Shown in pieces: positions 2,384-29,805 of a DNA stretch of 64,000 bases (its first letter is position 1; every line of letters begins with the position of its first letter). The translations under genes were made by a program, and so were the position numbers. The stretch is from assembly GCA_016200545.1 (NCBI GenBank), contig JACQEO010000084.1, positions 5,528 through 69,527 of the forward strand, read 5' to 3'. The DNA comes from Deltaproteobacteria bacterium. GTDB lineage: Bacteria; Desulfobacterota; Binatia; UTPRO1. Below the pieces are notes generated by a model. That model saw only the letters and a list, made by a program, of their open reading frames with translations. It was not told the DNA's origin and did not search any database.

Positions 2384-2509
2384 ACGACGCGCCCGGGTCG
2401 CCCCGTCGCACGATGCACGCGCGCGGGGGCGCTTGCCGGGATCCGCCGTGCGCGCGAAGATACGCGCGTGGTGCACGTCGATCGCGCTTCCCGCCGGTCT
2501 CGGTTGGCC

Positions 2510-3586
2510 ATGCGCACGCTCGGTCGCGGCGCTGCGGCGCTCCTCGTATCGACAACGCTGGTGACGCCGCGGATCGCCGCGAGCGCAACCGTCACTTGCG
2601 GCATGGTCGTCGAGGATCAGATCGTGCTCGACCGCGATCTTCGCTGTGCGGGCCCGGCGCTCGTTATCCGCAACCCTCGCACCGTCGTGCAGCTGAACGG
2701 TCACGTCCTCGAGTCGTCGCGTCCCTGTCACGACGCGGGGTCGACCGTCGGCATCGTCGTCGAGCCGACCGCGGACCGCGCCAACATCCTCGGGCCCGGC
2801 ATCGTGCGCGGCTTTGCGACCGGCATCACGATCGACTGGGCGCCGCAGGTGCAGCTCCGCGATCTCCGCGTCACCGACAGCTGCGCCTTCGGCATCGCCG
2901 TCCGCAGCACGACCGCCACCCGCGCCCGCGACCTCGTCCTCGATCGTAACGGCGACGGCGGCGACAGCGCCGGCGCGATTCGCGTCGAGCACGCGCGACG
3001 CTTCGCGCTCGTCGACAGCGACGTGCTCCTGAACGACGCTGGCGCGAACGGAGCGGCGATCGACCTCCGCAGCTGCGAGAACTGTCGCATCGGCGGCAAC
3101 CGCGTCGTCGCCAACCACGGCGCCGGCATCCGCCTCGACGTCGAGTCGCAAGCAAACGAGGTCGAGCGCAACCTCATCCTCGGGCAGCGCCCGAGCGACG
3201 TCGTCGATCAAGGCTCCGACAATCTCATTACCCTGAACGGCTTCGACCGCGGCGACGGCGTCGACCCGCCGCCGCTGTGGCCGCTCCTCAGCGTTCCCGC
3301 GTCGCCCGCGCCCGGCATCGCCGGTTGCGGCACGATGCACGACACGGTGGGACCGCGGGCCACGGTGACGATCACGTGCCCGCAGGACGTCGGACTGCGC
3401 GCCGTCCGGAACAGCGTCGTCACCTATCGGCTGCTGAACCCATTCAACACCTCGCAACTCTTCCGCGGAACCTGCAATCCCGGCATCGTCCACCCGGCGG
3501 CGGGGAGCACCGGGGGCAGCGTGAGGTGCACCAACGGCGATTCGCTGTGGCCGGCCGTGCTCGAGGTCACCTGCTGTTTGAATTGA
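2510..3586 (+). CDS. Secreted right-handed parallel beta-helix repeat protein (pectin-lyase fold, NosD-like), function unknown
   Basis: Signal peptide 'MRTLGRGAAALLVSTTLVTPRIAASA'. Repetitive beta-helix rungs ('…NGDGGDSAGAIRVEHARRFALVDSDVLLNDAGANGAAIDLRSCENCRIGGNRVVANHGAGIRLD…'). The start is taken at the Met that begins the signal peptide. Confidence 0.6.
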   Translation: MRTLGRGAAALLVSTTLVTPRIAASATVTCGMVVEDQIVLDRDLRCAGPALVIRNPRTVVQLNGHVLESSRPCHDAGSTVGIVVEPTADRANILGPGIVRGFATGITIDWAPQVQLRDLRVTDSCAFGIAVRSTTATRARDLVLDRNGDGGDSAGAIRVEHARRFALVDSDVLLNDAGANGAAIDLRSCENCRIGGNRVVANHGAGIRLDVESQANEVERNLILGQRPSDVVDQGSDNLITLNGFDRGDGVDPPPLWPLLSVPASPAPGIAGCGTMHDTVGPRATVTITCPQDVGLRAVRNSVVTYRLLNPFNTSQLFRGTCNPGIVHPAAGSTGGSVRCTNGDSLWPAVLEVTCCLN

Positions 3587-6732: not shown

Positions 6733-9579
6733 TCAGCGCGCCGCCGCGACCGCCGCCGTGCCCTCGCTCGCGCGCTCGCGGGCGAACGCCCGATTGATCA
6801 GATCGGCCTCCTCGGCCTGATGGAGCTTGTACGAGCCCGTTGCCGGACTCGCCGCCTCCGGCCGGCCGACGTAGCTGAGCGCCCGCGAAGCGGGCACGAT
6901 GCGCCGCAGGCGATGGTACATGAAATGCCAGGCGCCCATGTTCCAGGGCTCCTCCTGAACCCAATAGATCTGTCGCGCCTGCGGGTACGCGGTGAAGACC
7001 GCCTCGAGCTCGCGCTGCGGAAACGGATACAGCTGCTCGACGCGCACGATCGCGGTGGTGTCGAGCTCGCGTTCACGCCGTCCGTCGAGGAGCGTGTAGT
7101 ACACCTTGCCGCTGCAGAGGACGATGCGTGTCGCCCGCGCCGGATCGATCCGCACGCCGGCTTCCGGCGCTCCCGCGACGGCGACGTCGTCGAGCACCGG
7201 GTGGAAGACGTCGTGCGTCAGTTCGCGCGCGCTCGAGACCGCGAGCTTGTGCCGCAGCAGGCTCTTCGGGCTCATGATAATGAGCGGCTTGCGGAACGAC
7301 CGATGCATCTGACGTCGCAGCGCGTGGAAGTATTGCGCCGGCGTCGTCAGGTTGCAGACCTGCAGGTTGTCGTCGGCGCAGAGCTGGAGATAGCGCTCGA
7401 GCCGTGCGCTCGAGTGCTCGGGCCCCTGCCCCTCGTAGCCGTGCGGCAGCAGCAGCACCAGGCCGCTCATACGCTGCCACTTCGACTCCGAGCACGCGAT
7501 GAACTGGTCGATGATCACCTGCGCGCCGTTGGCGAAATCCCCGAACTGCGCCTCCCAGACGACGAGCTTCCACGGATCCGCCGAGCTGAAGCCGAACTCG
7601 AACCCGAGGACCGCGTTCTCCGAAAGCATGCTGTCGAGGATGACAAACCGCGCCTGGCCCTCACGGACGTTGTCGAGGGGGATGTAGCGCGCGCCGTTTT
7701 TGTTGTCGTGCAGGACGGCGTGCCGGTGGCTGAAGGTGCCGCGGCCGCTGTCCTGCCCGCTCACCCGCACCGTCGTGCCTTCGATCACGAGGGATCCGAT
7801 CGCCAGCGCCTCACCGCATCCCCAATCGATCTTGCCGCCCTCGCGTACCATCGCAGCGCGCGTCTCCATGAGGCGCGCCACCCGCGGATGCGGCGTGAAG
7901 CCGTCCGGCACGCGCGTGAACGCCGCGGCGATTTCGTCGAGAACCGCCGGGTCGACGGCCGTGTCGGCGCCCCAGTCGTTGCCGGCCCACCCGAGCCCCT
8001 TCCACAGGCCACCGAACGCGAACACCGGCAGCCGCGGCATGAAGTCGCGGGCGTATCCTTGCGCGTCGTCGAGGAGCTCGCGGAACTCGGCCGTGCGGCG
8101 GTCGGCGTCCTCGCGCGTCAGCAGCCCCTCGGCGAGGAGGCGGGCGCGGTACTGCTCGAGCGGCGACGGATGCTGGGCGATCTGTTGGTACATGACCGGC
8201 TGGGTGAAGGTGGGGTCGTCGAGCTCGTTGTGCCCGTGCTTGCGGTAGCAGACGAGGTCGATGATGACGTCCTTCTTGAAGTGTTGCCGGAACCCGATCG
8301 CGAGCCGCGCCGCCTGCACCGCCGCTTCGGGGTCGTCACCGTTCACGTGGAAGACCGGCGCCTGGATGATCTTGGCGACGTCGCTCGGATAGGGCGTGAA
8401 GCGGAACGCCTCGGGCGGCGTCGTGAAACCGATCTGGTTGTTCACGATGATGTGGATCGTGCCGCCCGTCCGATAGCCCTCGAGCTCGGAGAGCCACAAC
8501 GTCTCGGCGACCATGCCCTGTCCGGTGAACGCCGCGTCGCCGTGCATGAGGATCGGCACCACGCGCTCGCGTTCGGTGTCGCCGAGCCGGCTCTGCTTCG
8601 CCCGCACCATGCCCTCGATCACCGGATCGACCGCCTCGAGGTGGCTCGGGTTCGGGCTCAGCGACAGGTGCACCTTGCGCCCGGCCCGTGTCGTATGGTC
8701 GCGCGAGTAGCCGAGGTGGTACTTGACGTCGCCGTCCCCCATCGACTCCCTGACGAGAAAGCTGCCCTCGAACTCGGCGAGAATCATCTCGTATGGCTTG
8801 CTGAGGACGTTGCCGAGGACGTTCAGACGCCCGCGATGCGGCATGCCGATGACCATTTCTTCGACGCCCTGCGTGCCGGCGTCCTCCACCAGCGTGTCGA
8901 GAAGCGGGATCAGCGACTCGGCGCCCTCGAGCGAGAAGCGCTTCGCGGTTGGGTAGCGGGTCTGTAGGAACTGCTCGAAATGCTCCGCGACCATCATGCG
9001 ATCGAAGATCCGCGTGCGCTCGTCGCGGCCGAGATCGGGGTGGTTGGAGCTGGGCTCCATGCGGTCCTGCAGCCAGACACGCTGCGCACGGTCTTGGATG
9101 TGCAGGTACTCGACTCCGAGCGTCTGGCAGTAGGTCGCCTGCAGGCGCTGGATCAGCTCGCGCAGGGTCGCCGTCGCGCACCCTTGGAAGCTACCGCACT
9201 CGATCACCCGATCCATGTCGGCCTCGCCGAAGCCGAACTCGGAAGGCTCGAGAAGCGGATGTCCCGCGGGCTTCGGCGCGAGCGGATTCAGGTGGGCGAC
9301 GAGGTGACCGAGCTCACGATACGAATGGACGAGATCGAAGACACCGATGACCGGCGCCGCGTCCGGTCTCGCCGTCGATGCGGCCGCGGCGCTCGCCTCA
9401 CGACCGTTCGGATGAGGAGTCGCCGGCGCGTCGGCACCGTTGCCGTCGGCGGCGAGTTCGAATCCGGCGAAAAAGAGCGCCCAATTGTCGTCGACCGAGC
9501 TCGGGTCTTGCCGATAACGACGATACTGCTCGTCCACGTACGACGCGTTGGCGCGGGTCACCAGATCCAGGCTGCGCAT
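6733..9579 (-). CDS. sucA: 2-oxoglutarate dehydrogenase E1 component
   Basis: 948 aa. The N-terminus ('…SYVDEQYRRYRQDPSSVDDNWALFFAGF') and ThDP-binding region are typical of SucA. It lies upstream of sucB and lpdA on the same strand. Confidence 0.9.
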   Translation of the reverse strand: MRSLDLVTRANASYVDEQYRRYRQDPSSVDDNWALFFAGFELAADGNGADAPATPHPNGREASAAAASTARPDAAPVIGVFDLVHSYRELGHLVAHLNPLAPKPAGHPLLEPSEFGFGEADMDRVIECGSFQGCATATLRELIQRLQATYCQTLGVEYLHIQDRAQRVWLQDRMEPSSNHPDLGRDERTRIFDRMMVAEHFEQFLQTRYPTAKRFSLEGAESLIPLLDTLVEDAGTQGVEEMVIGMPHRGRLNVLGNVLSKPYEMILAEFEGSFLVRESMGDGDVKYHLGYSRDHTTRAGRKVHLSLSPNPSHLEAVDPVIEGMVRAKQSRLGDTERERVVPILMHGDAAFTGQGMVAETLWLSELEGYRTGGTIHIIVNNQIGFTTPPEAFRFTPYPSDVAKIIQAPVFHVNGDDPEAAVQAARLAIGFRQHFKKDVIIDLVCYRKHGHNELDDPTFTQPVMYQQIAQHPSPLEQYRARLLAEGLLTREDADRRTAEFRELLDDAQGYARDFMPRLPVFAFGGLWKGLGWAGNDWGADTAVDPAVLDEIAAAFTRVPDGFTPHPRVARLMETRAAMVREGGKIDWGCGEALAIGSLVIEGTTVRVSGQDSGRGTFSHRHAVLHDNKNGARYIPLDNVREGQARFVILDSMLSENAVLGFEFGFSSADPWKLVVWEAQFGDFANGAQVIIDQFIACSESKWQRMSGLVLLLPHGYEGQGPEHSSARLERYLQLCADDNLQVCNLTTPAQYFHALRRQMHRSFRKPLIIMSPKSLLRHKLAVSSARELTHDVFHPVLDDVAVAGAPEAGVRIDPARATRIVLCSGKVYYTLLDGRRERELDTTAIVRVEQLYPFPQRELEAVFTAYPQARQIYWVQEEPWNMGAWHFMYHRLRRIVPASRALSYVGRPEAASPATGSYKLHQAEEADLINRAFARERASEGTAAVAAAR

Positions 9580-9695
9580 GCGTTCCTTTTAGCCTCTCGG
9601 CGCCGCGCCCGCCACAGGGCGCGATCTCCGCTCACCCGCGCGGCCGCGATCTGATACACTACGACGCGTGACCGCGACGGACCGCGAGCCTGGCG

Positions 9696-10928
9696 ATGGC
9701 TAGACCGCAACGCAGCGACGTCGTCGCCATGGTCCTCGCCGGCGGCGAGGGCAAACGGCTCTACCCGCTCACCCGCGACCGCGCCAAGCCGGCGGTGCCC
9801 TTCGGCGGCCGCTATCGCATCATCGACTTCGTGCTCTCCAACTTCGTCAACTCCGGCATCTTCAAGATCAGCGTGCTCACGCAGTACAAATCGGGATCGC
9901 TGGTGCAGCACCTGGCGCGCGGTTGGCAGCTCGCGCCGCAGATGGGCCACTACGTCACGCCGGTACCGGCAACGATGAACGTCGGCCGCGAGTGGTTCCG
10001 TGGCAGCGCCGACGCCGTCTATCAGAACCTCGACGTGGTCGCGAACGAGCGTCCCGCCTACGTCTGCGTCTTCGGTGCCGATCACATCTACCAGATGGAC
10101 ATCTGCCAGATGCTCGACTTCCACGCCGAACGCGGCGCCGACGCGACGGTCGCGACGATCCCCGTCCCGGCCGAGCAGACGGACGAGTTCGGGATCCTCG
10201 AGTGCGACGTCGAGCGTCGCGTGACCGCGTTCCGCGAGAAGCCCACGCCCGAGCCGGGCGCAACCGGTACCGCCCCGGCCTCGATGGGCCTCTACATCTT
10301 CAGCGCCGACGTCCTGGTGCGCGCCGTCACCGACGATGCCGAGCGCGTCGACTCGAGCCACGACTTCGGCCGCGACATTCTGCCACGCCTCGTCGAAGGG
10401 TCGCGCGTCTTCGCCTACGACTTCTCGACCAACGAGATCCCGCACATGCACCAGCAGCAGCGTGGTTACTGGCGCGACGTCGGAACGATCGACGCGTACT
10501 GGCAGACGTCCGAGGATCTGATCTCGGTGACGCCGATCCTCAACCTCTACAATCCGGCGTGGCCGATGATCTCCGCCTTCTACCCCAACCCTCCCGCGAA
10601 GTTCATCTTCGCCGATCCGGAGCACAACCGCGTCGGGCTCGCGACCAACTCGATGGTCTCGGAAGGCTGCATCATCAGCGGCGGCCACGTCGATCGCTCG
10701 ATCCTCGGCCCGCGCGTGCGCGTCAACAGCTTCTCGCTGGTGAGCGAGTCGATCCTCTTCGACGGCGTCGAGGTCGGCCGCCACGCCCGCATCAAGCGCG
10801 CGATCATCGACAAGGGCGTCGTCGTACCGCCGGGCACGACGATCGGCTACGACGACGTCGAGGATCGCCGGCGCTTCACCGTCAGCGAAAGCGGCGTCGT
10901 GGTGGTCCCGAAGGGCCTGGTGCTGTAG
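9696..10928 (+). CDS. glgC: Glucose-1-phosphate adenylyltransferase
   Basis: 'VLAGGEGKRLYPLTRDRAKPAVPFGGRYRIIDFVLSNFVNSGI…' gives the ADP-glucose pyrophosphorylase signature; 410 aa. Confidence 0.9.
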   Translation: MARPQRSDVVAMVLAGGEGKRLYPLTRDRAKPAVPFGGRYRIIDFVLSNFVNSGIFKISVLTQYKSGSLVQHLARGWQLAPQMGHYVTPVPATMNVGREWFRGSADAVYQNLDVVANERPAYVCVFGADHIYQMDICQMLDFHAERGADATVATIPVPAEQTDEFGILECDVERRVTAFREKPTPEPGATGTAPASMGLYIFSADVLVRAVTDDAERVDSSHDFGRDILPRLVEGSRVFAYDFSTNEIPHMHQQQRGYWRDVGTIDAYWQTSEDLISVTPILNLYNPAWPMISAFYPNPPAKFIFADPEHNRVGLATNSMVSEGCIISGGHVDRSILGPRVRVNSFSLVSESILFDGVEVGRHARIKRAIIDKGVVVPPGTTIGYDDVEDRRRFTVSESGVVVVPKGLVL

Positions 10929-11070
10929 CGCACCGCACTTCGCATGTGAGCGCCCCGCGCCGCGCTCTGCGACCCACCGCCACCCCTCTTTCGCGTTGAC
11001 ACGCTACGCACGGCACGCGTACCCTTCCGAAATGCCGGCGTCGTCTCGGGTCGTCGCCGGTTGCGGTCCC

Positions 11071-11721
11071 ATGATCGATCACGCCCCTTCGTGCTCCGCG
11101 ATTCGTCGGCTGCTCGCCCTTGCGAGCATCCTCGTCCTGCTCGCGCACGCGCGACCCGCGGCCGCGACCACGCTGCTGCTGCTCGACCTCGACGCGCTCA
11201 CCGCCGCCGCCGATCGCGTCTTCATGGGCCGCGTCCTCACCGTCCGCAGTGGTCGCGATTCGAAGGGCCTGCCGGTCACGTGGACGACCTTCGCCGTCGA
11301 CGCGGCACTCAAGGGAGCACCGCCGAAGACGATCGAGATCAAGCAGCTCGGCGTCGACGCGCCGTTGCCCGACGGCGGCATCTTCCACATCCCCGCACTG
11401 CCGAGCTATCGCGTCGGCGACGAGGTCATCCTCTTTCTGCATCCCGAGAGCCGCGAAGGCTTCACCAGCCCCGTCGGCTTCGGCCAGGGTCGGTTCCGCA
11501 TCCGCCGTGACGGCGGCACCCCGGTCGCCGAGAACGACGTCGGCAACTCCAACCTCACGGCCGCGAGCGCCGGTAGCGTGCCCGTCGGCTCTGCGGCGAT
11601 GCGCGCCGAGACGCTCGCCGCCGGCCCGCCGTCCGCGGCAGCCGTCCTCCGGGCGCCGGCGCCGATCGCCGTCGACGAGCTCCTGACGCGCATTCGAGCA
11701 GCGGCCGATGCGTCGCGCTGA
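11071..11721 (+). CDS. Hypothetical secreted protein, coupled to the downstream metalloprotease
   Basis: Signal peptide 'MIDHAPSCSAIRRLLALASILVLLAHARPAAA'. Its 3' end overlaps the protease start by 14 nt. No recognisable domain. Confidence 0.5.
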   Translation: MIDHAPSCSAIRRLLALASILVLLAHARPAAATTLLLLDLDALTAAADRVFMGRVLTVRSGRDSKGLPVTWTTFAVDAALKGAPPKTIEIKQLGVDAPLPDGGIFHIPALPSYRVGDEVILFLHPESREGFTSPVGFGQGRFRIRRDGGTPVAENDVGNSNLTAASAGSVPVGSAAMRAETLAAGPPSAAAVLRAPAPIAVDELLTRIRAAADASR

Positions 11722-13921
11722 CCGCCGTCTCCGCGGCGTGCGCGCCCTCGCCGCGCCGCTGTTGGCGCTCACCGCGCTGGTCACAGGTCACGCCGACGCC
11801 GCCGGCCCGCTGATCGTGAACGGCGCCGGGACGCCGCTGGTGTGGAGCGGCGGCGTCGTCTCGTGGAATCCCGATCGCGGCACGCTCGGCACCCTCTCGA
11901 ACGCCGAGACCGTGAGCCTCGCTAGCGACAACTTCGCGAAGTGGCAGGCGGTGCCGACCGCGGCGCTCGCGATCTCCAACACCGGGGCGCTTCCCGTCGA
12001 CGTCACCACCGCCAACGTGAACGCGTTCATCGGTATCTGCGGCGACGGTCTCAGCCCGATCGTTTTCGACACCGACGGTTCGATCACTGATTCGCTGTTC
12101 GGCGTCGGCGCCTCCAATTCCATTCTCGGTTTCGCCGGTCCGGAGTGCGGCTCGCTGGTGCCGCCGGTGATCACCGAGGCCTCCGCGGTCCTGAACGGCA
12201 AGTTCATCGACGGCATTGCGACCGCGGGCAATCCGGAGATCAGCATCACGAGCTTCGCCCCGGTCCTGCTGCATGAATTCGGTCACTACCTCAACCTCGA
12301 GCACTCGCAGATCAATCTCCTCGAGGCGTTCGATCACAACGCCGCCAATGACGACACCATCGCGACGATGTTCCCGTTTCTGGTGAACGGCACCGAGGAG
12401 TCGATCCTGTCTCGCGATGACGAGGTCGCGATCTCGACGCTCTATCCGACGGCGGCGTTCAGCACCGCGTTCGGACGCATCACCGGCTCCGTGCTCCGTA
12501 GTGACGGGGTGACGCCGTTCCAGGGTGCGTACGTGATCGCCCGCAACGTCGCCGATCCCCGTCACGACGCCATCGGCTACGCCTCGGGCGAGCGCTACGT
12601 CCCGAGCGCGGCCGGTGGTCCGCCGGCTCCCGCGCTGCAAGGATTCTACGAGTTCCCGGGCCTCACGCCGGGGGCGAGCTACACCGTCGAGATCGAGCAG
12701 ATCTATGCCGGCTTCACCGGCGGTTCGAGTGTCGGCCCGTTCAGCACACCCGTCGTCTTGCCGGGGCCGGCCGAGTTCTGGAGCGGAGCGAACGAGGCCG
12801 CCGCTGACCCGCCCGACGACCCCAACGCGCCGGGCACGCCGATCATGGCCGTCGCGGCTGCGACGACCAGCGGCGTCGACATCGTCTTGAACGCCCTCGT
12901 GCCGCCGCCGAACGACGCCTGCGCCGACGCCACCAGCATCGCCGCCTTCCCATATGGCGACGGCGAGAGTACCGCAGGCGCGACCAGCGCATCGGGCGAT
13001 CCGATCCAGAACTGCAGCCCGGGCACGACGACCGCGAACGCCAACAGCGTCTGGTACCGCTTCACGGCACCGGCGGACGGCACCGTGACCGTCTCCACGA
13101 CCGGGAGCGACTACGACACCGTGCTCTCCGCCCACACCGGCGCGTGTGGCACGCTCGCCACCGTCGCCTGCGACGACGACATGACCGCTACCAACTTGCA
13201 GTCGGCGATCGGGTTCGCGGTGTCGGGCGGCACCAGCTACCTCGTCGAGGTCACGCAGTACGGCGCGCCCGGCGGTGGCGCGCTGCAGATCGCGGCCACG
13301 TTCACCGCGGGAGCCGCGGCGGGCTGTAATATCCCCGCGCCGGGAGCGTGCATCCCCGGAAAGGGCAAGCCGAACAGCGATTGCGTGACCGAGTGGCTGC
13401 TCGAGCCAGTGCCGCCGATCGACCGCGCGAAGGTGCCGCGCCGTAACGTCCCGGCGGCACGTCTCGCCTGCCACGACGGCGATCCGAGCTGCGACTTCGA
13501 CGGCGGCATCAAGGACGGCGGCTGCACCTTCCACGTAGCGGTGTGCGTGAACAACGACGATCCGCGCGCCGCGGCGGCCGGCTGTGTGCCGACGTCGATC
13601 GCGAGCTACCTCGTCAAGAAGCCGAGCGCGACGCGACCGAAAGACGCCGCCGACGTCGCCAACGGCGCGGCGCTTCGCAACGCGATCGCGGCGCTCGCAC
13701 TCTCCGGCGGCACCGTCGCGGGCGGGCTGGTCTCGTTCGTGCCGGCGGAGTCGATCGCGAACACCTGCACGCCCTTCCAGAACATCCGCGTTCCGATCGG
13801 CGCGCGGACGCTGCGCACGCGCGCGGCGACCGGGGCCGGCGTCGTCGACACCGATGGGCTGTCGCTGCGGTGTCTCCCAGCCGCGGCGGCCGCGGCAGCG
13901 CCGCGCCGCGGGCATCACTAG
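11708..13921 (+). CDS. Secreted metzincin-type zinc metalloprotease (matrixin-like HEFGHxxxLEHS) with a pre-peptidase C-terminal (PPC-like) domain and a Cys-rich C-terminal module
   Basis: Signal peptide 'LAAPLLALTALVTGHADAAG'. Zinc motif 'VLLHEFGHYLNLEHSQ' (HExxHxxxxxH). A PPC-like beta domain ('…NSVWYRFTAPADGTVTVSTTGSDYDTVLSAHTGACGT…'). A C-terminal ~198-aa Cys-rich tail. Confidence 0.7.
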   Translation: MRRADRRLRGVRALAAPLLALTALVTGHADAAGPLIVNGAGTPLVWSGGVVSWNPDRGTLGTLSNAETVSLASDNFAKWQAVPTAALAISNTGALPVDVTTANVNAFIGICGDGLSPIVFDTDGSITDSLFGVGASNSILGFAGPECGSLVPPVITEASAVLNGKFIDGIATAGNPEISITSFAPVLLHEFGHYLNLEHSQINLLEAFDHNAANDDTIATMFPFLVNGTEESILSRDDEVAISTLYPTAAFSTAFGRITGSVLRSDGVTPFQGAYVIARNVADPRHDAIGYASGERYVPSAAGGPPAPALQGFYEFPGLTPGASYTVEIEQIYAGFTGGSSVGPFSTPVVLPGPAEFWSGANEAAADPPDDPNAPGTPIMAVAAATTSGVDIVLNALVPPPNDACADATSIAAFPYGDGESTAGATSASGDPIQNCSPGTTTANANSVWYRFTAPADGTVTVSTTGSDYDTVLSAHTGACGTLATVACDDDMTATNLQSAIGFAVSGGTSYLVEVTQYGAPGGGALQIAATFTAGAAAGCNIPAPGACIPGKGKPNSDCVTEWLLEPVPPIDRAKVPRRNVPAARLACHDGDPSCDFDGGIKDGGCTFHVAVCVNNDDPRAAAAGCVPTSIASYLVKKPSATRPKDAADVANGAALRNAIAALALSGGTVAGGLVSFVPAESIANTCTPFQNIRVPIGARTLRTRAATGAGVVDTDGLSLRCLPAAAAAAAPRRGHH

Positions 13922-13942
13922 GCGCCGTCGGACGCCCCTCGC

Positions 13943-15106
13943 TCAGCCGAGCAGCCGCCGCGTCGCGAGATCGGCGCCGGCGCGCAACGCCGCGAGCTTC
14001 TCCCACACGATCTCCTCCGCCACCTCGCCGAGTCCCGCGGCGGTCGCGAAGCCGCAATCGGTGCCCGCGAGGACGCGGCGCGGATCGCCGACGGCACGCG
14101 CGGCGAGCTCGATGCGGTCGGCCACCACCTCGGGGTGCTCGACGTAGTTCGTCGTCGTGTCGATCACCCCGGCGACCAGCAGCATGCCCGGTGGTAGCGG
14201 GTGGCGGGCGAAGCAGCGGTGCTCGTGGGCGTGGCGCGGGTTCGCCATCGAGATCACCAGCGCGCCGACCCGCGCCTCGTAGAGCCACGGCAGGAGCTCT
14301 TCGAGCGGCACGTCGAGCGTATGCGGGGCCTCGTAGTTGCCCCAACACACGTGCATCCGTACCCGCTCCGGCGCGATGCCGTCGAGCGCGCGATTGATCG
14401 CGCCGATGTTCAGCTCGACCCAGCGCAGGAATTCCGTCAGCGGCCGATCGGCGAAGAGCGTGTGGCGCTCCATCGCGAGATCGGGACAGTCGAGCTGGAG
14501 GACGAGGCCGTGATCGACGATCGCGCGATACTCGACCCGCAGCGCCGCGGCGAGCGCGAGCACGTACTCGTCGAGCGTCGCGTAGTGGGCGTTCGCCATC
14601 GCGGCGGCGACGATCCCCGGCGACGCCGCGGTCATGAATGTCTCCACGAAGCGTCCGGACGACTCCCGCAGGATGCGGGCGAGATCGGCGCACTCGCGCT
14701 CGACGTGGCTCGGATCGGTGTAGCGCACCGCCTCGATCGCTTGCGGCGCGTCCATCAGGCTCACCATGGTGCGTGACAACTCCGGCAGCTTGAGGGCGAG
14801 GAAGCTCTGGAACTGTACGATGTCGCGCATGATCGGTCGCGCGCTCGCGCCGCCGAAGCCGCTCATGCGGTGTTGCACGTAGGTGAAGAAGCTCTCGCGC
14901 GGCTGTTCGCCGTCGTTGCCGACGTCGACGCCGGCGGCGAGCTGGCGCGCGATCACGTGCCGCGTCGACGCCTCGACCTCGCGCACGAACGCATCGGCGT
15001 CGACCGGCTCGCGTCGGCTGACGCGCACCAGCATCTCCACCAGCGCCGGCGTCCGCGGCAAGCTTCCGGCGTGCGTCGTCAGTATGCGCTCGTCACTCCG
15101 CTTCAT
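13943..15106 (-). CDS. Cobalamin-independent methionine synthase (MetE) C-terminal-domain-like protein (UROD/MetE superfamily)
   Basis: 'MKRSDERILTTHAGSLPRTPALVEM…' gives the TTxxGSxPR motif of MetE-like catalytic domains (~387 aa). The upstream part of the track ORF is Arg/Ser-rich frame noise, so the start is placed at this Met. Confidence 0.75.
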   Translation of the reverse strand: MKRSDERILTTHAGSLPRTPALVEMLVRVSRREPVDADAFVREVEASTRHVIARQLAAGVDVGNDGEQPRESFFTYVQHRMSGFGGASARPIMRDIVQFQSFLALKLPELSRTMVSLMDAPQAIEAVRYTDPSHVERECADLARILRESSGRFVETFMTAASPGIVAAAMANAHYATLDEYVLALAAALRVEYRAIVDHGLVLQLDCPDLAMERHTLFADRPLTEFLRWVELNIGAINRALDGIAPERVRMHVCWGNYEAPHTLDVPLEELLPWLYEARVGALVISMANPRHAHEHRCFARHPLPPGMLLVAGVIDTTTNYVEHPEVVADRIELAARAVGDPRRVLAGTDCGFATAAGLGEVAEEIVWEKLAALRAGADLATRRLLG

Positions 15107-15374
15107 CGTCGCCCTCCATCCCGTCCCCGAGTCGCCGGCTGACGACGATCTCGATCTCGTCGAGTGGCGAGACGCCGCGATTGCGGATGCGCGCGCTCCA
15201 GGCCGGCACCGAGCGGAGGTGGGTGAACACGGCGCGAATGAGCCCGGGCTTGACGCCGATCTCCCACTCGTCGAGCCACGCGTCCTCCTCGAAGTCCTCC
15301 TGCTCCCAGAGCGCGTCTGGAATCTCCGCCTCGAGGGTGAAGCGCAAGAGAAACGTCTTGTCGCGGGTCTCCAT
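15093..15374 (-). CDS. Small acidic hypothetical protein (93 aa), coupled to the MetE-like gene
   Basis: Composition (E/D/W/F/I/K-rich: 'METRDKTFLLRFTLEAEIPDALWEQEDFEEDAWLDEWEIGVKPGLIRAVF…') is unlike GC-frame artefacts. It overlaps the MetE-like start by 14 nt. No strong RBS. Confidence 0.4.
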   Translation of the reverse strand: METRDKTFLLRFTLEAEIPDALWEQEDFEEDAWLDEWEIGVKPGLIRAVFTHLRSVPAWSARIRNRGVSPLDEIEIVVSRRLGDGMEGDDEAE

Positions 15375-15411
15375 GCCGCGTTCGTAGCAGCGGGCCGCCT
15401 CTCGGCCAAGC

Positions 15412-16085
15412 TTGATGTTTGCATTCGCCGCGCGACCGATTCAGAGTCCGCGCGTGCGGCGGGAAACGCAGAGCGCGGTCGCGCCGAGCGGCTGGCCGCT
15501 CGTCGGCTGGCTGGCGCTCGCCCTCGTCGTCATGGTCGCCCTCCTACTCGCGCGCTTCGGCGCCGCCGAGGCGGGGATCCGCGTCTCATCCGCGCCACCG
15601 CGCGCACGTCGTTCACGCTCTTCCTGCTGGCGTTCGTCGCCGGCGCGCTCCGCCGCGCATGGCGCGGGCGCGCGAGCGCGTGGATCCTCGCCAATCGCCG
15701 CTACCTCGGGGTCTCCTTCGCGGTCTCGCACCTGCTGCACCTGCTCGCGATCCTCGCGCTCTACGACTGGTCCATACGGCGCTTCTTCGTCGAGACCGGC
15801 GTCGCCGCGAGCGTGTTCGGCGGCACCGGCTATCTCTTCGTCCTGGCGATGACCGTCACCTCGTTCGATCGCACCGCGGCCTGGCTTGGCCCGCGTCGCT
15901 GGCGGCGTCTGCACACGCTCGGCGTGTACTATCTCTGGATGATCTTCGCGCTCAGCTACGTGCCGCGCGCGCTCGTGGGATCGCCGGCATACGCGCCGCT
16001 CGCCGCCGGCGTGATCGCCGCGCTCGTCCTGCGTCTCGTCTACCGCCCGGGCCGCGCGCGCCGGGCGAGCCTCGCCGCAGCTTGA
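15412..16085 (+). CDS. Ferric-reductase-like transmembrane protein (MsrQ/YedZ-like), reading frame interrupted by an apparent -1 frameshift near 15580-15590
   Basis: The N-terminal TM segment ('SGWPLVGWLALALVVMVALLLARFGAAEAGIRV') is in one frame. The rest ('IRATARTSFTLFLLAFVAGALRRAW…NRRYLGVSFAVSHLLHLLAIL…HTLGVYYLWMIFALSY') is in another. Restoring one C in 'gtctc' would join them into a ~200-aa 6-TM protein. Confidence 0.5.
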
Positions 16086-16113
16086 GACCGCCGCGCGGCG
16101 CGACACTGCCGCG

Positions 16114-17163
16114 TCAGCGCACGTCCGGACGCGCCGCCGCGAGCCGGGCGCGCGCGCGCCGCAGCGCCGCCTCGCCGGTCGTCACGCCCTCACGGGCGGC
16201 GTCCTCGAACACGGCGTCGAGACGGGCCTCGATCCGCTGCACCACATCCAGCGCGCGCGCGCCGCGCCCGGCGAAGGTCTCGAAGCCGACGATCACGGCG
16301 CCGGCGTTGGCGGCAAAATCAGGCGCGTACCAGACGCCGCGTTCCTGCAGTATGCGTCCCGCGGCGTCGCTCGCGAGCTGGTTGTTCGCCGCGCCGGCGA
16401 CGCCGCGCGCCCGCAGGCGTCGCGCCACCTCCTCGGTGATCACCTCACCGACGGCGCAGGGCGCGAGCACGTCGACGTCGGCGTCGAAGATCGCCGCCGC
16501 CGGCACGCGCGGGATGCCGAGCTCGCTCGCACAGCGTGCGGCGCGTACCTCGTCCACCTCGCTGAAGCTCACGCGCGCCCCGACCTCGACGAGCAGGCGG
16601 GTGAGCACGACGCCGACGTCGCCCACGCCTTGCACCAGCACGCGCGCACCGTCGAGCGATTCGCGCCCGGTGATGCGCCGCCACACCGCGCGGACGGCGA
16701 CCAGCACGCCGGTCGCGGTACCGAGGTCGAGGCCGCCGGCCGCGTCCTCGGCGAGTGCGAAGCGCGTCCGCGACGTGACCAGGGCGAGCTCGGCGGCCGT
16801 CGTGCCGTAGTCGCACGCCGTCACGTAGCGGCCGCCGAGGGCCTCGATCACCTCGCCGAGCGCGTGAAAGGCCGCCTCGCGCCGCATCGCCGGGTGGCGC
16901 AGCACCACGGCCTTCCCGCCGCCGAGATCGAGCTCAGCGAACGCGTTCTTGTAGGTCATCGCCCGCCCCAGCCTGAGGACGTCGCGTGCGCCCTCCTCGG
17001 GCGTCGCGTAGGCGCGCCAACGGATGCCGCCGGTCGCGGGACCGAGGCGGGTATCATCGATGGCGATGAACGCAGTGAGGCCGAGGTCGCGGCGGTGGAC
17101 TACGTGGAACTCCTCGGGGCGAAACTCGTCGAGGAGCGCGAAGAGTGAAGAATCGGACGCCAT
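16114..17163 (-). CDS. Glu/Leu/Phe/Val dehydrogenase family protein (leucine/phenylalanine dehydrogenase-like)
   Basis: '…FIAIDDTRLGPATGGIRWRAYATPEEGARDVLRLGRAMTYKNAFAELDLGGGKAVV…' together with a C-terminal NAD-binding domain ('VQGVGDVGVVL'). Confidence 0.7.
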   Translation of the reverse strand: MASDSSLFALLDEFRPEEFHVVHRRDLGLTAFIAIDDTRLGPATGGIRWRAYATPEEGARDVLRLGRAMTYKNAFAELDLGGGKAVVLRHPAMRREAAFHALGEVIEALGGRYVTACDYGTTAAELALVTSRTRFALAEDAAGGLDLGTATGVLVAVRAVWRRITGRESLDGARVLVQGVGDVGVVLTRLLVEVGARVSFSEVDEVRAARCASELGIPRVPAAAIFDADVDVLAPCAVGEVITEEVARRLRARGVAGAANNQLASDAAGRILQERGVWYAPDFAANAGAVIVGFETFAGRGARALDVVQRIEARLDAVFEDAAREGVTTGEAALRRARARLAAARPDVR

Positions 17164-17210
17164 GCACCCCGGTAGCGGCCGCGCCACGACCCGTCAACGG
17201 GGAGCGGCGC

Positions 17211-18473
17211 TCAGGACGCGAGCGCGATCTCGGAAGCGACTTGCACACGTACCGGCGGCGCCGGCGTGGGCGCGGCGCGCGGCATCGGCTCGCGCGGCAG
17301 CGTGAACTCGAAGGCTGCGCCCTCCTCGTCGATATACGGCGAGATGGCGCGGATGGCGCCGCCGTGGTGCTCGATGGCGAGCCGGCAGAACGTCAGCCCG
17401 AGGCCCCAGCCGTGGAGGCGATCGGCACCCTGCTGGTGCTTGCGGAACAAGTTCGACAGCAGTGCCGGCGGGATCACTGGGCCGCGGTTTCCGATGCGCA
17501 CGACCAAGGTCCCGTCGTTCCGCCGCTCGGTGTGCAGGTCGATGCGCGTGCCGCGCGGCGCCGCGCTGACGGCGTTGTCGAGGAGGTTCAGAAGCACGCG
17601 TTCGACGAGCTGCTGATCGCAGCGCACGATCACCTGCATCTCCCCGCTGGCGACGATCGTCAGCTCCTTGGCGCGCGCCATCGCCGCCGCGTCTTCCACC
17701 ATCGGCTCGCAGATCGACGACCACGGCACGTCGTTCAAGCGTAGCGGCATCCATCCGCTCTCCAGCCGGTTGACGTCGAGGATGGTGCCGACGAGCGTCG
17801 TAATGCTGCGCGTCGAGTGGCGCAGGATCGGGATCATCCTGTCGAGCGACGTCGCATCCAGCTCGAGCATCTCGACCGCCGACGTGGCGGCGTGGATCCA
17901 GTTCTTGATGTCGTGCACGGTGAGGTCGAGGAGGTCGTTCCGCTGGCGCTCGCTCTCGTGGAGCTGCGCCGTGCGCTCGCCGACGATGCGTTCGAGGTCG
18001 CGCGCGTACTCCCGCAGGCGCGCGTGCGCCGCCCGCAGGAGATCGGTCTGCGTCACGATGCCGCGGAGCTGTCCCGTCCGCGACACCACCGGCAACCGGC
18101 GGATACCGTGACGACCGATCTCGGCGATGGCGTCGGCGACGCTGGCCTCGGGCTCGACGACGACGAGCGGGCGGTGCGTCGTCTCCCGGACCGTGCGCGC
18201 CGCCCAGCCGCTCGGGTCGTGCGCGCATTCGCGCACCACGTCGCGCTCGGATACGACCCCGACCGGCCGGTCGCCGTCCATGACGACCGCGCAGCTGATC
18301 GTGTGCGTCGCGAGCAGCCCGGCGACGTCGCCAAGCGACGCGTCGACCGACACGTGCCACACCTGCTCCGACATGTGCTCGGCGACGGACACGCCCCGAA
18401 TATCGAACCGTGAGGCGCCGAACTTGAGCGCACGGCAGTTCGCATGGCGCACGTCGGGCGCGCCGTCGGTCAC
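17211..18473 (-). CDS. Sensor histidine kinase with an N-terminal CBS pair
   Basis: CBS-domain region ('…VGVVSERDVVRE…RGIVTQTDLLRA'), HisKA H-box ('LTVHDIKNWIHA'), and HATPase_c ('LLDNAVSA…GWGLGLTFCRLAIEHHGGAI'). No cognate response regulator is adjacent. Confidence 0.7.
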   Translation of the reverse strand: MTDGAPDVRHANCRALKFGASRFDIRGVSVAEHMSEQVWHVSVDASLGDVAGLLATHTISCAVVMDGDRPVGVVSERDVVRECAHDPSGWAARTVRETTHRPLVVVEPEASVADAIAEIGRHGIRRLPVVSRTGQLRGIVTQTDLLRAAHARLREYARDLERIVGERTAQLHESERQRNDLLDLTVHDIKNWIHAATSAVEMLELDATSLDRMIPILRHSTRSITTLVGTILDVNRLESGWMPLRLNDVPWSSICEPMVEDAAAMARAKELTIVASGEMQVIVRCDQQLVERVLLNLLDNAVSAAPRGTRIDLHTERRNDGTLVVRIGNRGPVIPPALLSNLFRKHQQGADRLHGWGLGLTFCRLAIEHHGGAIRAISPYIDEEGAAFEFTLPREPMPRAAPTPAPPVRVQVASEIALAS

Positions 18474-18485
18474 GCCGCGGTCCAG

Positions 18486-19274
18486 TCAGGAGCGCGCGGG
18501 CTCGGGCTTGAACCGCCGCCCGATGACCCCCGAGACGCGCCGCACGAGAGCGCGCGGTACGAGACCCGTGAGGCTCGTCGCCACCCGGTTGCCGGCGCCG
18601 GGCACGCACACGACGTCGCCGCGCCGCAATCCGTTGAGCGCGGCATCGACGACGGCCTCCGCCGACATCCAGAAGAAGGCCGGAATGTTCGCGACGTCGA
18701 TGCCCGCGCGTTCCTGGAACTCGGTGCGCGTGAACCCCGGACAGAGTGCCTGCACGCGCACGCCGCTGCCGCGCAGCTCCTCGGAGAGCGCCTCCGTGAA
18801 GCTGTTCACCCACGCTTTGGTGGCGCTGTACGTCGCGTTGAAGGCCCCCGGCTGAAAGGCGCCGACCGAGGAAACGTTGACGATCGCGCCCGCGTGGCGC
18901 GCCAACATGCCGGGCAGCGTTGCGCGCGTGAGGCGCATGAGCGCGATCACGTTCAGGCGGATCTCCTCTTCCTCACGCGTCGGGTCGAGCTCGGCGAAGG
19001 CGCCGACGGTGCCGAAGCCGGCATTGTTGACGAGCAGGTCGAGGGGCGCGGCGGTGACCGCCGCGACCGTGGCGTCGACGCCGCGCGGGTCGCTCAGGTC
19101 GGCCACCAGCACGTCGACCTTGCCGCCGGGCGCGCGCAGACGCGTCGCCAGCTCCTCGAGTCGGCCGCGCGTGCGTGCAACGACGGTGAGGTCGTAGCCG
19201 TCGCGGGCGAGGCGCGCCGCGAAGGCGGCGCCGATCCCCGACGACCCCCCGGTGACGAGCGCGCGCGGACGCAG
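18486..19274 (-). CDS. Short-chain dehydrogenase/reductase (SDR); 5' end lacks a canonical start codon
   Basis: '…RPRALVTGGSSGIGAAFAARLARDGYDLTVVARTRGRLEELA…NNAGFG…YSATKAWVNSF' gives the TGxxxGIG, NNAG and YxxxK motifs. The track ORF begins at an internal GTG (19112), but the Rossmann N-terminus is encoded upstream. No ATG/GTG/TTG precedes it before an in-frame TAG; CTG at 19272-19274 would give MRPRALVTGG. Confidence 0.7.
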   Translation of the reverse strand: MRPRALVTGGSSGIGAAFAARLARDGYDLTVVARTRGRLEELATRLRAPGGKVDVLVADLSDPRGVDATVAAVTAAPLDLLVNNAGFGTVGAFAELDPTREEEEIRLNVIALMRLTRATLPGMLARHAGAIVNVSSVGAFQPGAFNATYSATKAWVNSFTEALSEELRGSGVRVQALCPGFTRTEFQERAGIDVANIPAFFWMSAEAVVDAALNGLRRGDVVCVPGAGNRVATSLTGLVPRALVRRVSGVIGRRFKPEPARS

Positions 19275-19377
19275 GGTCGATCTCTTCTCGGCTGCGGATG
19301 ATTGTGCCTGCGTGTCCCTCCCGAACGTGGGCGGCTATCGCACGAGGACTCGTCCCTTTCAATGCGCGCCTGCGTGC

Positions 19378-20948
19378 GTGTGTGCGCGCGCGCTCCGCGC
19401 CCGCCTGCGCTCACACGCCGCGTGGATCGTCGCCCTCACCCTCGCGACGATCGGCCCGCTCCCCGACGTCGGCGCCGGCGACACCCTGGCGCACGTGCGC
19501 GCGGCGGGCGAGCTCCGCTGGGGCGCCGACGCCCAGGGCGGCGCACCCTACGTCTTCCAGGACCCGACAGATCCGAATCACCTGATCGGCTTCGAGGTCG
19601 ACCTCGTCGACGCGCTTGCACACGAGCTCGGCGTCCGTGCCCGGCCCGTCCAGGGTCAGTGGGAGACGCTCCTCGAGCTCCTCGCGCGCGGCGACTTCGA
19701 CGTCGCGCTGAACGGCATCGAGGTCGCGCCCGAGAAGGAGCGCGTCTGCCGCCTCTCGCGTCCCTACTACGCCGCCGCCGAGCGGCTCACCGTCCGGCGC
19801 GACGACGCGCACGCGCCGCGCACCCTCGCCGAGCTGCGTGACCGTCCGGTCGGAACCCTCCCCGGCTCGCTCGCCGAGCGCATCCTCGCCCGCGCCGATG
19901 CCGCCGTGCGGAGCTACGAAGGCGGGCAGAACGAGATCTACGCCGACCTCGCCCTCGGACGCACCGACGCCGTCCTCCTCGACGCGCCGATCACGCGCTA
20001 CTACGCCGAGATCGACCCGAAGCTGCGCGTCGTCGACGGCGCCTTCGGCGAGGTGCGCTACGCGCTCGCCGTGCGGCGCGACGACGCCGCGCTCGCCGCC
20101 GCGATCGACGACGCCCTCGGCGCCCTCGCCCGCGCCGGGACGTTACGGCACATCTACGAGCGCTGGGGCCTGTGGAACGCGGAGACGGCGGCGCTCCTCG
20201 GCGACCCCGTGCCGGCGTCGCACGCCGTCGCCGAGGCGTTCGAGACCTGGCGCGCCGCCGTCGGGGCGCTGCCGCCGTTTCTCACCCGCGTGCGTGAATG
20301 GTACCCGCGCAGCCAGGCGCTGTTCGCGCGCGCCGCGCTCCTGACGCTCGCGCTCTCGTTCGTCGCCATGGGCCTCGCGATTCCCCTCGGCGTGTTGCTG
20401 GCGCTGGCGCGCACGTACGGTCCTACGCCGCTGCGCTGACTCGCGACCGGATACATCGAGTTCATGCGCGGCACGCCGCTCTTGGTGCAGCTCGTGATGC
20501 TCTACTTCGGCCTTCCCGAGCTCGGCGTGACGCTCGATCCGTTCGTCGCCGGCGCGCTCGCCCTCGGCCTCAACTACGCCGCGGCCGAGGCCGAGAACTA
20601 CCGCGCCGGCCTCGAGAGCGTCCCCGCCGCGCAGCTCGAGGCCGCATGGGCGCTGCGGCTCTCGACGGCGCAGGCGTTGCGCTACGTCGTCGGCCCGCAG
20701 GCCCCGTGCGCGTCGCCATCCCGCCGGCGACGAACGACTTCATCGCGCTCCTCAAGGACAGCTCGTTGGTCTCGCTCGTCACGTTGACGGAGCTGACGAA
20801 GACCTACGTCAACCTCGCGAACGCGACGCGCGACCACCTCGGCCTCGGCCTCGTCGTCGCGCTGTGGTACCTCGCGATCGGGCTGCCGTTCGCGCGCCTC
20901 GCCCGCTACGCCGAGCGGCGCCTCGGCCGCCATCTGCGCACCACCTGA
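19378..20948 (+). pseudogene. Polar amino-acid ABC transporter: substrate-binding domain fused to permease (HisM/GlnP-like), disrupted by an in-frame TGA (20437-20439) and a +2/-1 frameshift (~20698-20708)
   Basis: The substrate-binding part ('…GELRWGADAQGGAPYVFQD…IYERWGLW') runs without a stop into permease TM1 ('…LALSFVAMGLAIPLGVLLALARTYGPTPLR'). TGA then sits where the conserved motif expects W ('LR[W]LATGYIEFMRGTPLLVQL'). The C-terminal part ('…VRVAIPPATNDFIALLKDSSLVSLVTLTELTKT…') is in a different frame after a C-run. Confidence 0.6.
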
Positions 20949-21637
20949 TGCTGCGCGTCCGCGACCTCGAGCACACGTATCCCGGTGCCGCGATGTCGAC
21001 GTTTCGCGCCGTCTCGTTCGACGTCGAGGCGGGCGCACTCGCGACCATCACCGGCGCCAGCGGTGCCGGGAAGACGACCTTGCTACGCTGCCTCGCCGGC
21101 CTCGAACCATTTCATCATGGGAGCGTCGAGCTGCCAGGCATGCGGGTCGTCGTCGACGCGCGGAACGGCCGCGGCGGCGGCGCACGCCTGCGCGGACACG
21201 TTGGGCTCGTGTTCCAGGCGCTCGAGCTGTTCCCGCATCTCACCGCGCTCGAGAACTGCGTCCTCGCACCGCTGCGTGTGCGCCGCGTCGCCCGCGTCGA
21301 CGCCGAGCGGAGCGGACGTGATCTCCTCGCAACGCTCGGCCTCGCCGACAAGGCGGACGCGTTCCCGGCACACCTCTCCGGCGGGCAGCGCCAGCGCGTC
21401 GCGATCGCGCGCGCGCTCGCGATGGAGCCACGCGTCATCCTCTACGACGAGCCGACGAGCGCCCTCGATCCGTCGCTGCGGGGCGAGTTCGTCGAGACCC
21501 TGCGCCGGGTGCGCGCAACGGGCGTCGCGCAGGTCGTCGTGACTCACGACCCGACGCTCGCCGACGGCACCGCCGACGCATGCTTCACGCTCGCGAACAG
21601 CACGTTGATTGCCGCAACACAACTGTCCGCGCACTGA
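20948..21637 (+). CDS. Amino-acid ABC transporter ATP-binding protein
   Basis: Walker A 'GASGAGKTTLL', signature 'LSGGQRQRVAIARAL', Walker B 'ILYDEPTSALD'. The start 'MLRVRDLEHTY' overlaps the permease stop (TGATG). Confidence 0.85.
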   Translation: MLRVRDLEHTYPGAAMSTFRAVSFDVEAGALATITGASGAGKTTLLRCLAGLEPFHHGSVELPGMRVVVDARNGRGGGARLRGHVGLVFQALELFPHLTALENCVLAPLRVRRVARVDAERSGRDLLATLGLADKADAFPAHLSGGQRQRVAIARALAMEPRVILYDEPTSALDPSLRGEFVETLRRVRATGVAQVVVTHDPTLADGTADACFTLANSTLIAATQLSAH

Positions 21638-28900: not shown

Positions 28901-29805
28901 ATGCGAGTTCACGCCACCACGTCTGTCATCGCGGTCGCACTGGTCGCGCTCAGCTTCGTCGCCGGCTGTGGCGATTCCACCAACACGGACATCACGCTCG
29001 GAGACGAACCGACGCCGACGCCCGCGACCGCCCGCACCGCGACGCCGGTTGTCGGGCGCACCGCGACCCCCGTCGCCACCGCGACGCCGGGTACCGTCGC
29101 GACGGCGACCACCGGCAGCAACCCGACGCCGACCGCGACCCCCGGCAGCAGCGTGGATGCCGACGTGCAGGCGGTCGTCTCCGACCTTCTCCCGTTCCTG
29201 ACAACCGGTCCGACCCTCCTCTCGGGCGGAAGCGCCAGCGCGCTCACGGCGGGCTCGGCCGCGATCATCACATCGGTGGAGGCGCTGAAGAACGACCCCT
29301 GCCCGGACGGTGGCAGCCGCGTCGACGACGAGGGGCTTCCGGTTCGGACGATCACCCTCACAACGTGCAGAGTCTCCGATCCGCAGCTCGGCTCGTTCGA
29401 GTTCGACGGCACCATCACGATCACGATCAGCCTCCAGGGCTGCAGCATCGACTTCGACTTCACCTCGAAGGATCTACTCAACAACGATCACACCGTCCAC
29501 TTCTCGGGATCCCTCACCGGCCCGCCGCAGCTGTCTGGTTTCGTCCTCGACGGGCAGGTGGTGGTCGCGACCCTGAAGGCAATTTTACACTGAATCTCCA
29601 CAGCATCACGATCAATTCCAACCACAAGCTGGTGTCGGGATCGGGAACCGCGAGCGACGATGATGACAACTCTACCATCGATACGATCGCGATGACCGTC
29701 GCCCAGGGCGGAGCGACGGCCGACTTCACCGTGACGTTCGACGACACCTCGGTCCACACCTACACCCTCGATCTATCGAGCGGGCAACTCACGCAAACGA
29801 GCTGA
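28901..29805 (+). CDS. Thr/Pro-rich lipoprotein; reading frame apparently shifted (-1) near 29569-29574
   Basis: RBS AGGAGG. Lipobox 'LSFVAGCGDS'. Low-complexity 'TPTPATARTATPVV…TPTATPGS'. The beta-rich C-terminus continues in the +1 frame ('…GNFTLNLHSITINSNHKLVSGSG…TVTFDDTSVHTYTLDLSSGQLTQTS') after a CCC run. Confidence 0.5.

Follow-up and report, generated by a model that had tools for sequence, protein, structure and literature searches.

The stretch of DNA analysed here (the window), from an uncultured bacterium of soil or groundwater type, is 64 kb long and has a GC content of about 70%. On its plus strand, at 19378–20948, lies what is most probably a pseudogene for a fused substrate-binding protein (SBP)/permease of a polar amino-acid ABC importer, identified by homology and alignment (PF00497, SBP_bac_3, and PF00528, BPD_transp_1). 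Intact orthologues are about 520 residues long, with SBP_bac_3 at the N-terminus and BPD_transp_1 at the C-terminus. The 120 homologues listed for this gene measure about 500–550 residues and contain both Pfam domains, the exception being the window's own truncated product. PF00528 is present in all the intact homologues listed, and PF00497 was detected by Pfam in the window reading frame itself. An intact protein of 520 residues (P0001) is 95% identical to the window gene on both sides of the stop codon described below; its 90% cluster contains only another 95%-identical sequence. The SBD of the gene matches GlnP in the PDB (6h30), and the permease half, once its lesions are repaired, matches ArtQ (4yms_D) with E=1e-37. 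The GTG at 19378 is also the start used in the Logan gene call. The syntenic sister locus was found on contigs L002 and L003. The sister genome, with assembly accession GCA_041476145.1, is a MAG named Candidatus Binatia bacterium OBJ_0618_7090110_177, and its nucleotide identity to the window is about 93.5%.

The original TGA terminator of the permease gene (20946–20948, plus strand) overlaps the ATG (20948–20950) of an ABC ATPase gene in a TGATG arrangement. This partner gene, located at 20948–21637 on the plus strand, appears intact: PF00005 is matched over its full length (E=1.8e-31), and its dN/dS against the sister genome is 0.26. The three elements of a fused SBP-permease importer (SBP_bac_3, BPD_transp_1 and an adjacent ABC ATPase) are therefore all found at 19378–21637. 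As in GlnPQ-type importers, which have the same permease fold as ArtQN (PDB 4yms), SBP_bac_3 precedes BPD_transp_1, the EAA loop region (LNYAAAEAENYRAG) is present and the ATPase gene overlaps the permease stop codon. Lactococcus GlnP has two SBDs, whereas the window gene has a single one and is most probably inactivated.

The gene is interrupted by a premature TGA at 20437–20439. The plus strand at 20434–20442 is CGC TGA CTC, and the frame runs, as described in a previous reading made from the sequence only (the sequence-only reading), ...ARTYGPTPLR*LATGYIEFMRGTPLLVQL... (in a shorter cut of the same frame, ...TYGPTPLR*LATGYIEFMRGTPLL...). The coding character persists on both sides of the codon, with a GC3 of 0.91 upstream and 0.86 downstream. 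Within the permease domain, the TGA follows transmembrane helix 1 and lies in a loop of the membrane domain; beyond it are the EAA loop and four transmembrane helices out of about five. By Pfam, the 353-residue N-terminal product matches SBP_bac_3 only; this domain is complete in the truncated reading frame, which also includes the first hydrophobic helix.

The position of the TGA had been presented as a conserved Trp, which holds within the clade but not across the family. Trp occupies the aligned site in 10 of the 12 close homologues of full length and, in the genome collection, in 24 of 34 close orthologous loci, whereas distant family members are variable at this position (L, I, F, C, K, G and others) and the solved ArtQ structure (4yms_D) has L. 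The proposed origin from TGG was borne out by the DNA of the relatives: eight of the 12 aligned have W at this site, and all eight encode it by TGG. The W-bearing relatives read CGC TGG CTC (some with CGT or CGA), as compared to CGC TGA CTC in the window, which places the change at 20439. No stop was found at this position in the 72 orthologous loci where the motif was located. Judged from these alignments, the TGA is a G-to-A change specific to the window lineage.

A further lesion, absent from the sequence-only reading, sits 265 bp downstream of the TGA. At 20702–20705 (plus strand) the window has a run of four C where relatives have CC, which corresponds to a +2 insertion by tandem duplication of CC and to a frameshift. 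Thirteen related DNAs read GGCC/GGCG-GTG here, as compared to GGCCCCGTG in the window, and homologous proteins read GPQA-VRVAIPP at the insertion site. In the window, the frame decays after ...VVGPQA and the conserved VRVAIPPATNDFIALLKDSS... resumes in another frame, so that the last 80 or so permease codons can be read only in the +2 frame. The relatives that have TGG and lack the CC insertion include outgroups at 77–97% nucleotide identity. Both lesions are contained within 1.57 kb. A programmed −1 frameshift at 20702–20705 was considered and rejected: the local sequence, G GCC CCG, does not have the canonical form of a slippery heptamer (X XXY YYZ), and none of the 13 relatives has the additional CC.

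Another permease gene is interrupted at 45687–46565 (plus strand). It encodes a ZnuB-like ABC-3 metal permease (PF00950), divided by one stop into pieces of 96 and 195 residues. The PF00950 profile (258 positions) is matched from 2 to 71 on the first piece and from 74 to 256 on the second, so that the two fragments jointly cover the profile. The pieces are colinear with intact homologues of 292 residues, at 90% identity, and E. coli ZnuB (PDB 9oko_B) is matched with E=3e-29. The stop had been reported in the sequence-only reading as a TAG at 45975–45977, which is confirmed; it is followed directly by GTG and is present in Logan contigs of two runs. It is also correct that E. coli ZnuB has W at the aligned position (9oko_B). 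The derivation of this TAG from TGG, in contrast, is contradicted by the close homologues, which have Tyr in 16 of 21 cases, Phe in three and Trp in two. An aromatic residue is also found at this position in the Mn permease (PDB 7kyo), where it is Y, as compared to W in E. coli ZnuB. Since the clade of the window gene has Tyr, unlike E. coli ZnuB, the stop is not a mutated Trp codon. The closest DNA reads GTC TAC GTG, as compared to GTG TAG GTG in the window, and the most parsimonious origin of the TAG would be a C-to-G transversion from TAC. The suggestion that both stops result from plus-strand G-to-A changes fails accordingly at the ZnuB-like gene. More generally, the alignment of a stop to a Trp of E. 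coli can mislead where Tyr is the residue found in the clade of the gene concerned. As a comparator for the 36–46 kb region, we tried a ZnuB homologue from a contig of 829 kb (L093), and no synteny was found beyond ZnuCB.

We surveyed the window for other lesions by combining a GC3-periodicity frame model, Pfam scans and a gene-by-gene comparison with the sister genome. Sister contigs covered 9.4–31 kb (L002) and 47.7–56.8 kb (L091) of the window; the survey of 1–9.4, 31–47.7 and 56.8–64 kb used Pfam coverage and the GC3 model only, with which small C-terminal truncations could escape. At 15454–16085 (plus strand), a gene for a polytopic membrane protein of 210 residues, of unassigned family, carries a 1-bp deletion between 15585 and 15586. 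By tblastn, the 210-residue sister protein is split between two window frames, and the G missing at 15585/15586 is present in three related contigs (L003, L008 and L009). At 28901–29802 (plus strand), a gene for a lipoprotein of 301 residues (lipobox LVAGCG) shows a 1-bp deletion at about 29571/29572, as judged by comparison with one genome, that of the sister; the deletion is also present in Logan contig L089.

The minus strand carries at 52115–53259 a gene identified by homology and affected by two lesions; its product, which measures 381 residues in relatives, is a secreted parallel beta-helix protein of NosD-like type. When the two frames are joined, the product aligns without gaps to 363 residues of the homologue P0242, of which 93% are identical, and the Pfam matches to Beta_helix and NosD cross the frame junction. 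The junction corresponds to a 1-bp deletion at 52766–52782 (minus strand), where the sister reads GGCATCTTCCCTTCC and the window GGCAT-TTTCCTTCC; the gene calls on Logan contig L090 accordingly give fragments of 171 and 170 residues. The other lesion is a premature TGA at 52169–52171 (minus strand), derived from a Trp TGG and located 18 codons before the normal TAG (52115–52117). The sister genome and a JGI contig (L092) read AAC TGC TGG AAG at this place, as compared to AAC TGC TGA AAG in the window. A NosD-like paralogue at 2384–3586 was discarded as a comparator for this gene, being too divergent (23% identity).

Gene tables and blastn break points also revealed a deletion scar at 49866–50042, where about 1.2 kb are replaced by 176 nt. 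The deleted stretch corresponds to a beta-lactamase-family gene of 394 residues, which adjoins an enoyl-CoA hydratase gene both in the sister genome and in the JGI contig; about 70 nt of its 3′ end are left in the scar. As a separate observation, the DAGK-like reading frame at 62104–62877 consists of the catalytic domain only, with a compositionally odd C-terminus, and may or may not be frameshifted.

In total, the window contains at least five decayed genes, with seven small lesions (three nonsense mutations and four frameshifts), in addition to the deletion scar. The nonsense codons comprise two TGG-to-TGA changes and one TAC-to-TAG change. Two genes, the one at 19378–20948 and the beta-helix gene, are hit twice. 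If seven lesions were distributed randomly over 58 genes, at most five genes would be affected with P=0.064. The products of these five genes are all exported or membrane proteins, and housekeeping genes are spared. The sister genome showed no frame-breaking lesion over about 29 kb, as compared to seven in the 64 kb of the window.

Every lesion is contained in one of five Logan contigs, retrieved by exact look-up of the truncated products and 100% identical to the window. Contigs L001 (window 9818–21419), L089 (22633–30775) and L088 (45089–50597) come from run SRR12113411, and contigs L087 (35687–47951) and L090 (50569–55127) from run SRR12113413; the TAG of the ZnuB-like gene is present in contigs of both runs. 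As the lesions recur in separate Logan contigs, they are not peculiar to one assembler. These contigs very likely derive from the window's own read sets, so that a systematic error at the level of the reads would be shared. We also polarised the single-base codon differences between the window and the sister, using more distant relatives as outgroups. The window lineage accumulated 140 synonymous and 47 nonsynonymous changes and the sister lineage 153 and 40, with near-identical spectra (C>T, 48 in the window versus 55 in the sister; G>A, 48 versus 45). No damage-type excess or skew relative to the sister was therefore detected among the polarised substitutions of the window lineage. The long conserved genes of the window are undamaged and covered by their Pfam domains in full (SucA, 951 residues; AcrB, 1049 residues; LpdA, SucB, GltD, Amt, a P-type ATPase and EF-P).

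Divergence between the window and the sister amounts to about 0.14 synonymous substitutions per site. With its lesions repaired, the 19378–20948 gene has an overall dN/dS of 0.25 against the sister orthologue, with 0.09 for the permease half and 0.33 for the SBP half including the signal peptide; 17 neighbouring genes range from 0.13 to 0.55. The low value indicates that purifying selection acted on the gene during almost all of this divergence, and therefore that its inactivation is recent. Among the three explanations offered by the sequence-only reading, the data favour authentic pseudogenes, with intact orthologues and derived lesions. We are fairly confident that 19378–20948 is an authentic recent pseudogene with a genuine, lineage-specific TGG-to-TGA nonsense mutation.

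Systematic error or damage, another of these explanations, found no support, given the recurrence of the lesions in Logan contigs and a number and spectrum of substitutions matching those of the sister. We regard it as unlikely that the gene is intact in the organism and that the TGA and the CC insertion are sequencing or consensus errors, or DNA damage, carried into the assembly. The absence of relaxation in dN/dS fits such an artefact, since a low value is equally expected if errors fall in a functional gene; lesions are dense in the window (seven in 64 kb) and absent from the roughly 29 kb examined in the sister, and the CC insertion extends a short C run. Nevertheless, the sequence is identical in separately built contigs, with the ZnuB-like TAG in both runs, and substitutions on the window lineage show neither excess nor skew. 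The seven lesions are confined to five accessory genes whose products are exported or lie in the membrane, and the long housekeeping genes have none; they cluster two per gene, and two of the four indels lie outside homopolymers. Their clustering and their restriction to envelope genes form the pattern of real mutations filtered by selection, not that of random errors. The probability that we leave to an artefact stems mainly from the fact that two disabling hits within a short neutral period are plausible, not compelling. Less probable still is a truncation with a new function, in which the 353-residue product, a binding domain with one transmembrane helix, would be kept as a membrane-anchored binding protein for another permease. 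SBP_bac_3 is indeed retained in full together with the first hydrophobic helix, and the SBP half is free of lesions. However, nothing points to a partner permease, the SBP half (dN/dS 0.33) is not more constrained than neighbouring genes, and the other four damaged envelope genes nearby are merely disrupted, as expected from general decay.

Translation of the UGA was also considered. The 51 intact complete genes of the window end with TGA (37) or TAG (14), and none with TAA; there are two in-frame TGAs in about 18,000 codons, as compared to 204 TGG codons. A reassignment of UGA to Trp was rejected on this ground, as TGA ends 37 of the 51 intact genes, with the 19378–20948 gene included, and is rare in frame. 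In genomes using table 4 codes (Mycoplasma and some reduced endosymbionts), as in the window, in-frame TGA is found where relatives have TGG. However, those genomes are AT-rich, do not use TGA as a terminator and have hundreds of genes with in-frame TGA, whereas the window has 70% GC and TGA as its main terminator. UGA is the leakiest of the stop codons and is misread by tRNA-Trp in E. coli. Functional recoding, with UGA read as Trp through near-cognate tRNA-Trp, a suppressor or a reassigned code to give a working permease, would agree with a stop lying exactly where relatives have Trp and with the second TGG-to-TGA change at 52169. We consider it highly improbable. The +2 frameshift located downstream removes the C-terminal 80 or so residues whatever the read-through, G GCC CCG being no canonical slippery heptamer, so that reading of the UGA could not rescue the permease; this blocks the read-through option of the sequence-only reading. 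In addition, TGA serves as the terminator of most intact genes and is rare in frame relative to TGG, no orthologue has TGA at the site, no tRNA or tmRNA was detected by ARAGORN in the 64-kb window, and the third stop is a TAG at a Tyr position.

Insertion of selenocysteine at this UGA is less probable again and is effectively refuted. An in-frame UGA within a conserved reading frame is the formal signature of selenocysteine, but homologues have Trp or another non-Cys residue at the site, with few distant Cys, and never a stop. The 74 nt starting from the UGA fold no better than shuffled sequences (z=0.21), no Rfam family, SECIS included, was found anywhere in the window, and the codon lies in a loop of the membrane domain, not in a redox centre. 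The idea of the sequence-only reading that the stops fall at Trp codons is partly revived, in so far as two of the three stops of the window (20437 and 52169) derive from TGG, but this remains within what is expected at 70% GC with transition-biased mutation. With the codon usage of the window, TGG ranks among the codons most prone to nonsense mutation: it gives rise to 10% of the single-step paths to a stop if rates are uniform, and to 16–23% if they are transition-biased or GC-to-AT-biased; at least two of three stops at TGG have P=0.03–0.13 under codon-usage models. Bacterial mutation is generally biased from GC to AT (PMC2936535, PMC2936529). Two stops at Trp positions out of three are within expectation and need no special explanation.

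Under the preferred reading, that of a recent pseudogene, the gene would once have encoded a periplasmic amino-acid-binding domain fused to a permease, working with the downstream ATPase. The G-to-A transition created a UGA after the first transmembrane helix, where translation would end at residue 353, and the CC duplication downstream disrupted the frame of the last 80 or so codons. The product would be at most a membrane-tethered binding domain. From the position of the two lesions, we infer that the transporter is non-functional and that the permease could not be made even with occasional misreading of UGA as Trp; the translationally coupled ATPase is probably under-expressed. No intact allele of the window strain was found in JGI metagenome contigs, either with a degenerate exact pattern (TGR) or with a second pattern that fits the sister as well; the best match to the gene is 95% identical. 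The window's own genome is absent from the GTDB species representatives scanned, and a full-text search with the two run accessions yielded no paper. The lesions may be fixed or near-fixed in the population, and the decay would be caused by relaxed selection on dispensable envelope functions.

The window resembles ordinary cases of bacterial pseudogenes, with intact orthologues, lineage-specific lesions, more than one lesion per gene, accessory transporter and surface genes affected and a neighbouring gene partly deleted. Pseudogenes typically make up roughly 1–5% of the genes in free-living bacteria. The window shows no essential difference from ordinary pseudogenes. Five in about 58 genes is a rather high local density for an organism that presumably lives freely, and the pseudogenes must have formed very recently, dN/dS not being raised. 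We regard the 19378–20948 gene as an ordinary young pseudogene in an ordinary transporter family, which does not represent a class of recoding.

The case is mainly a negative result, in that stop reassignment, selenocysteine and systematic deamination damage are unsupported here. For annotation, 19378–20948 should be described as one pseudogene with two lesions, neither as two reading frames nor as a case of recoding. The one mildly unusual trait is how many young pseudogenes are found among the envelope genes of this region, which may be a chance fluctuation or may reflect a bottlenecked or adaptively streamlining population. It is conceivable, if rather doubtful, that an uncultured Binatia-like population is undergoing an accelerated loss of exported and membrane proteins, with two TGG-to-TGA alleles possibly leaky via tRNA-Trp. 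If true, this loss could stem from a bottleneck or from selection, such as escape from phages or predators or a changed nutrient regime. The accumulation of young envelope pseudogenes thus provides a modest lead for the population genetics of this uncultured lineage.

All five disrupted genes of the window (15454-16085, 19378-20948, 28901-29802, 45687-46565 and 52115-53259) encode exported or membrane proteins, whereas a rough count by hand puts the share of this class among all genes of the window at only about 40%. No cytoplasmic housekeeping gene was found among the five.

Comparison with relatives revealed a 1-bp deletion at 15585/15586 in the gene of a conserved 210-aa polytopic membrane protein (15454-16085), and this lesion is not present in three relatives (contigs L003, L008 and L009). 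At the same locus, the gene caller applied to the Logan contigs, which are separate assemblies of the sequencing runs, reports, instead of the 210-aa protein, an ORF of 288 aa that follows the shifted frame. A 1-bp deletion at about 29571/29572 was also found in a lipoprotein gene (28901-29802; lipobox LVAGCG), for which the sister genome, a Binatia MAG, is the single comparator. The lipoprotein is 301 aa long in that genome, and the window product stops after ...ATLKAILH. The secreted NosD-like beta-helix gene (52115-53259, minus strand) is broken twice: a single base is deleted within 52766-52782, and at 52169-52171 TGG has become the stop TGA. It is the second double-lesion gene in the window, and its TGA is the second Trp-to-stop change.

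The window also differs from its relatives in gene content. In the sister genome (contig L091), the enoyl-CoA hydratase gene and a 427-aa gene flank a 394-aa beta-lactamase-family gene, and in the JGI contig L092 the 394-aa gene likewise adjoins the hydratase gene; the window has a deletion scar at 49866-50042, where this gene is absent apart from about 70 nt at the 3' end. A clean 3.1-kb presence/absence difference was located at 56087-56089, where the window lacks the 963-aa apiosidase-like/fn3 gene that separates amtB from the DUF6162 gene in the sister genome. Between the ZnuB-like and cytochrome c genes, the window has a 384-aa Rieske ring-hydroxylating oxygenase gene (46578-47745) where the related contigs L083-L085 have just a 70-aa ORF. 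Different genes (Fer4/pyridine-nucleotide oxidoreductase, Rieske, cytochrome b) come after the cytochrome c gene in the sister genome. These differences mark a rearrangement break point near 47745.

From about 52000 to 64000, GC is 0.62-0.66, down from about 0.70, and the GC3 signal is weaker. This region harbours cspA-like, glnB-amtB, DUF6162, hupE/ureJ, znuA, efp and heavy-metal P-type ATPase genes. It also contains a DAGK-like ORF (62104-62877) with the PF00781 catalytic domain alone (residues 20-136), followed by an Arg/Pro/Ser/Thr-rich C-terminus for which the domain search returned no match. This ORF may be a further frameshifted gene.

The ZnuA-like binding protein gene (57439-58413) is located about 11 kb from the ZnuC/ZnuB-like pair (44971-46565); it adjoins hupE/ureJ and shares no operon with the pair. 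In L093, the related 829-kb contig with a ZnuB homologue, the ZnuC-like gene (9348-9854) is called at just 168 aa, as opposed to 239 aa elsewhere, possibly due to a frameshift in that assembly. In the window, the TAG of the ZnuB-like gene is directly followed by GTG, the ancestral Val codon (45975-45980). It is conceivable that termination and reinitiation here would yield two half-permeases of 96 and 195 aa.
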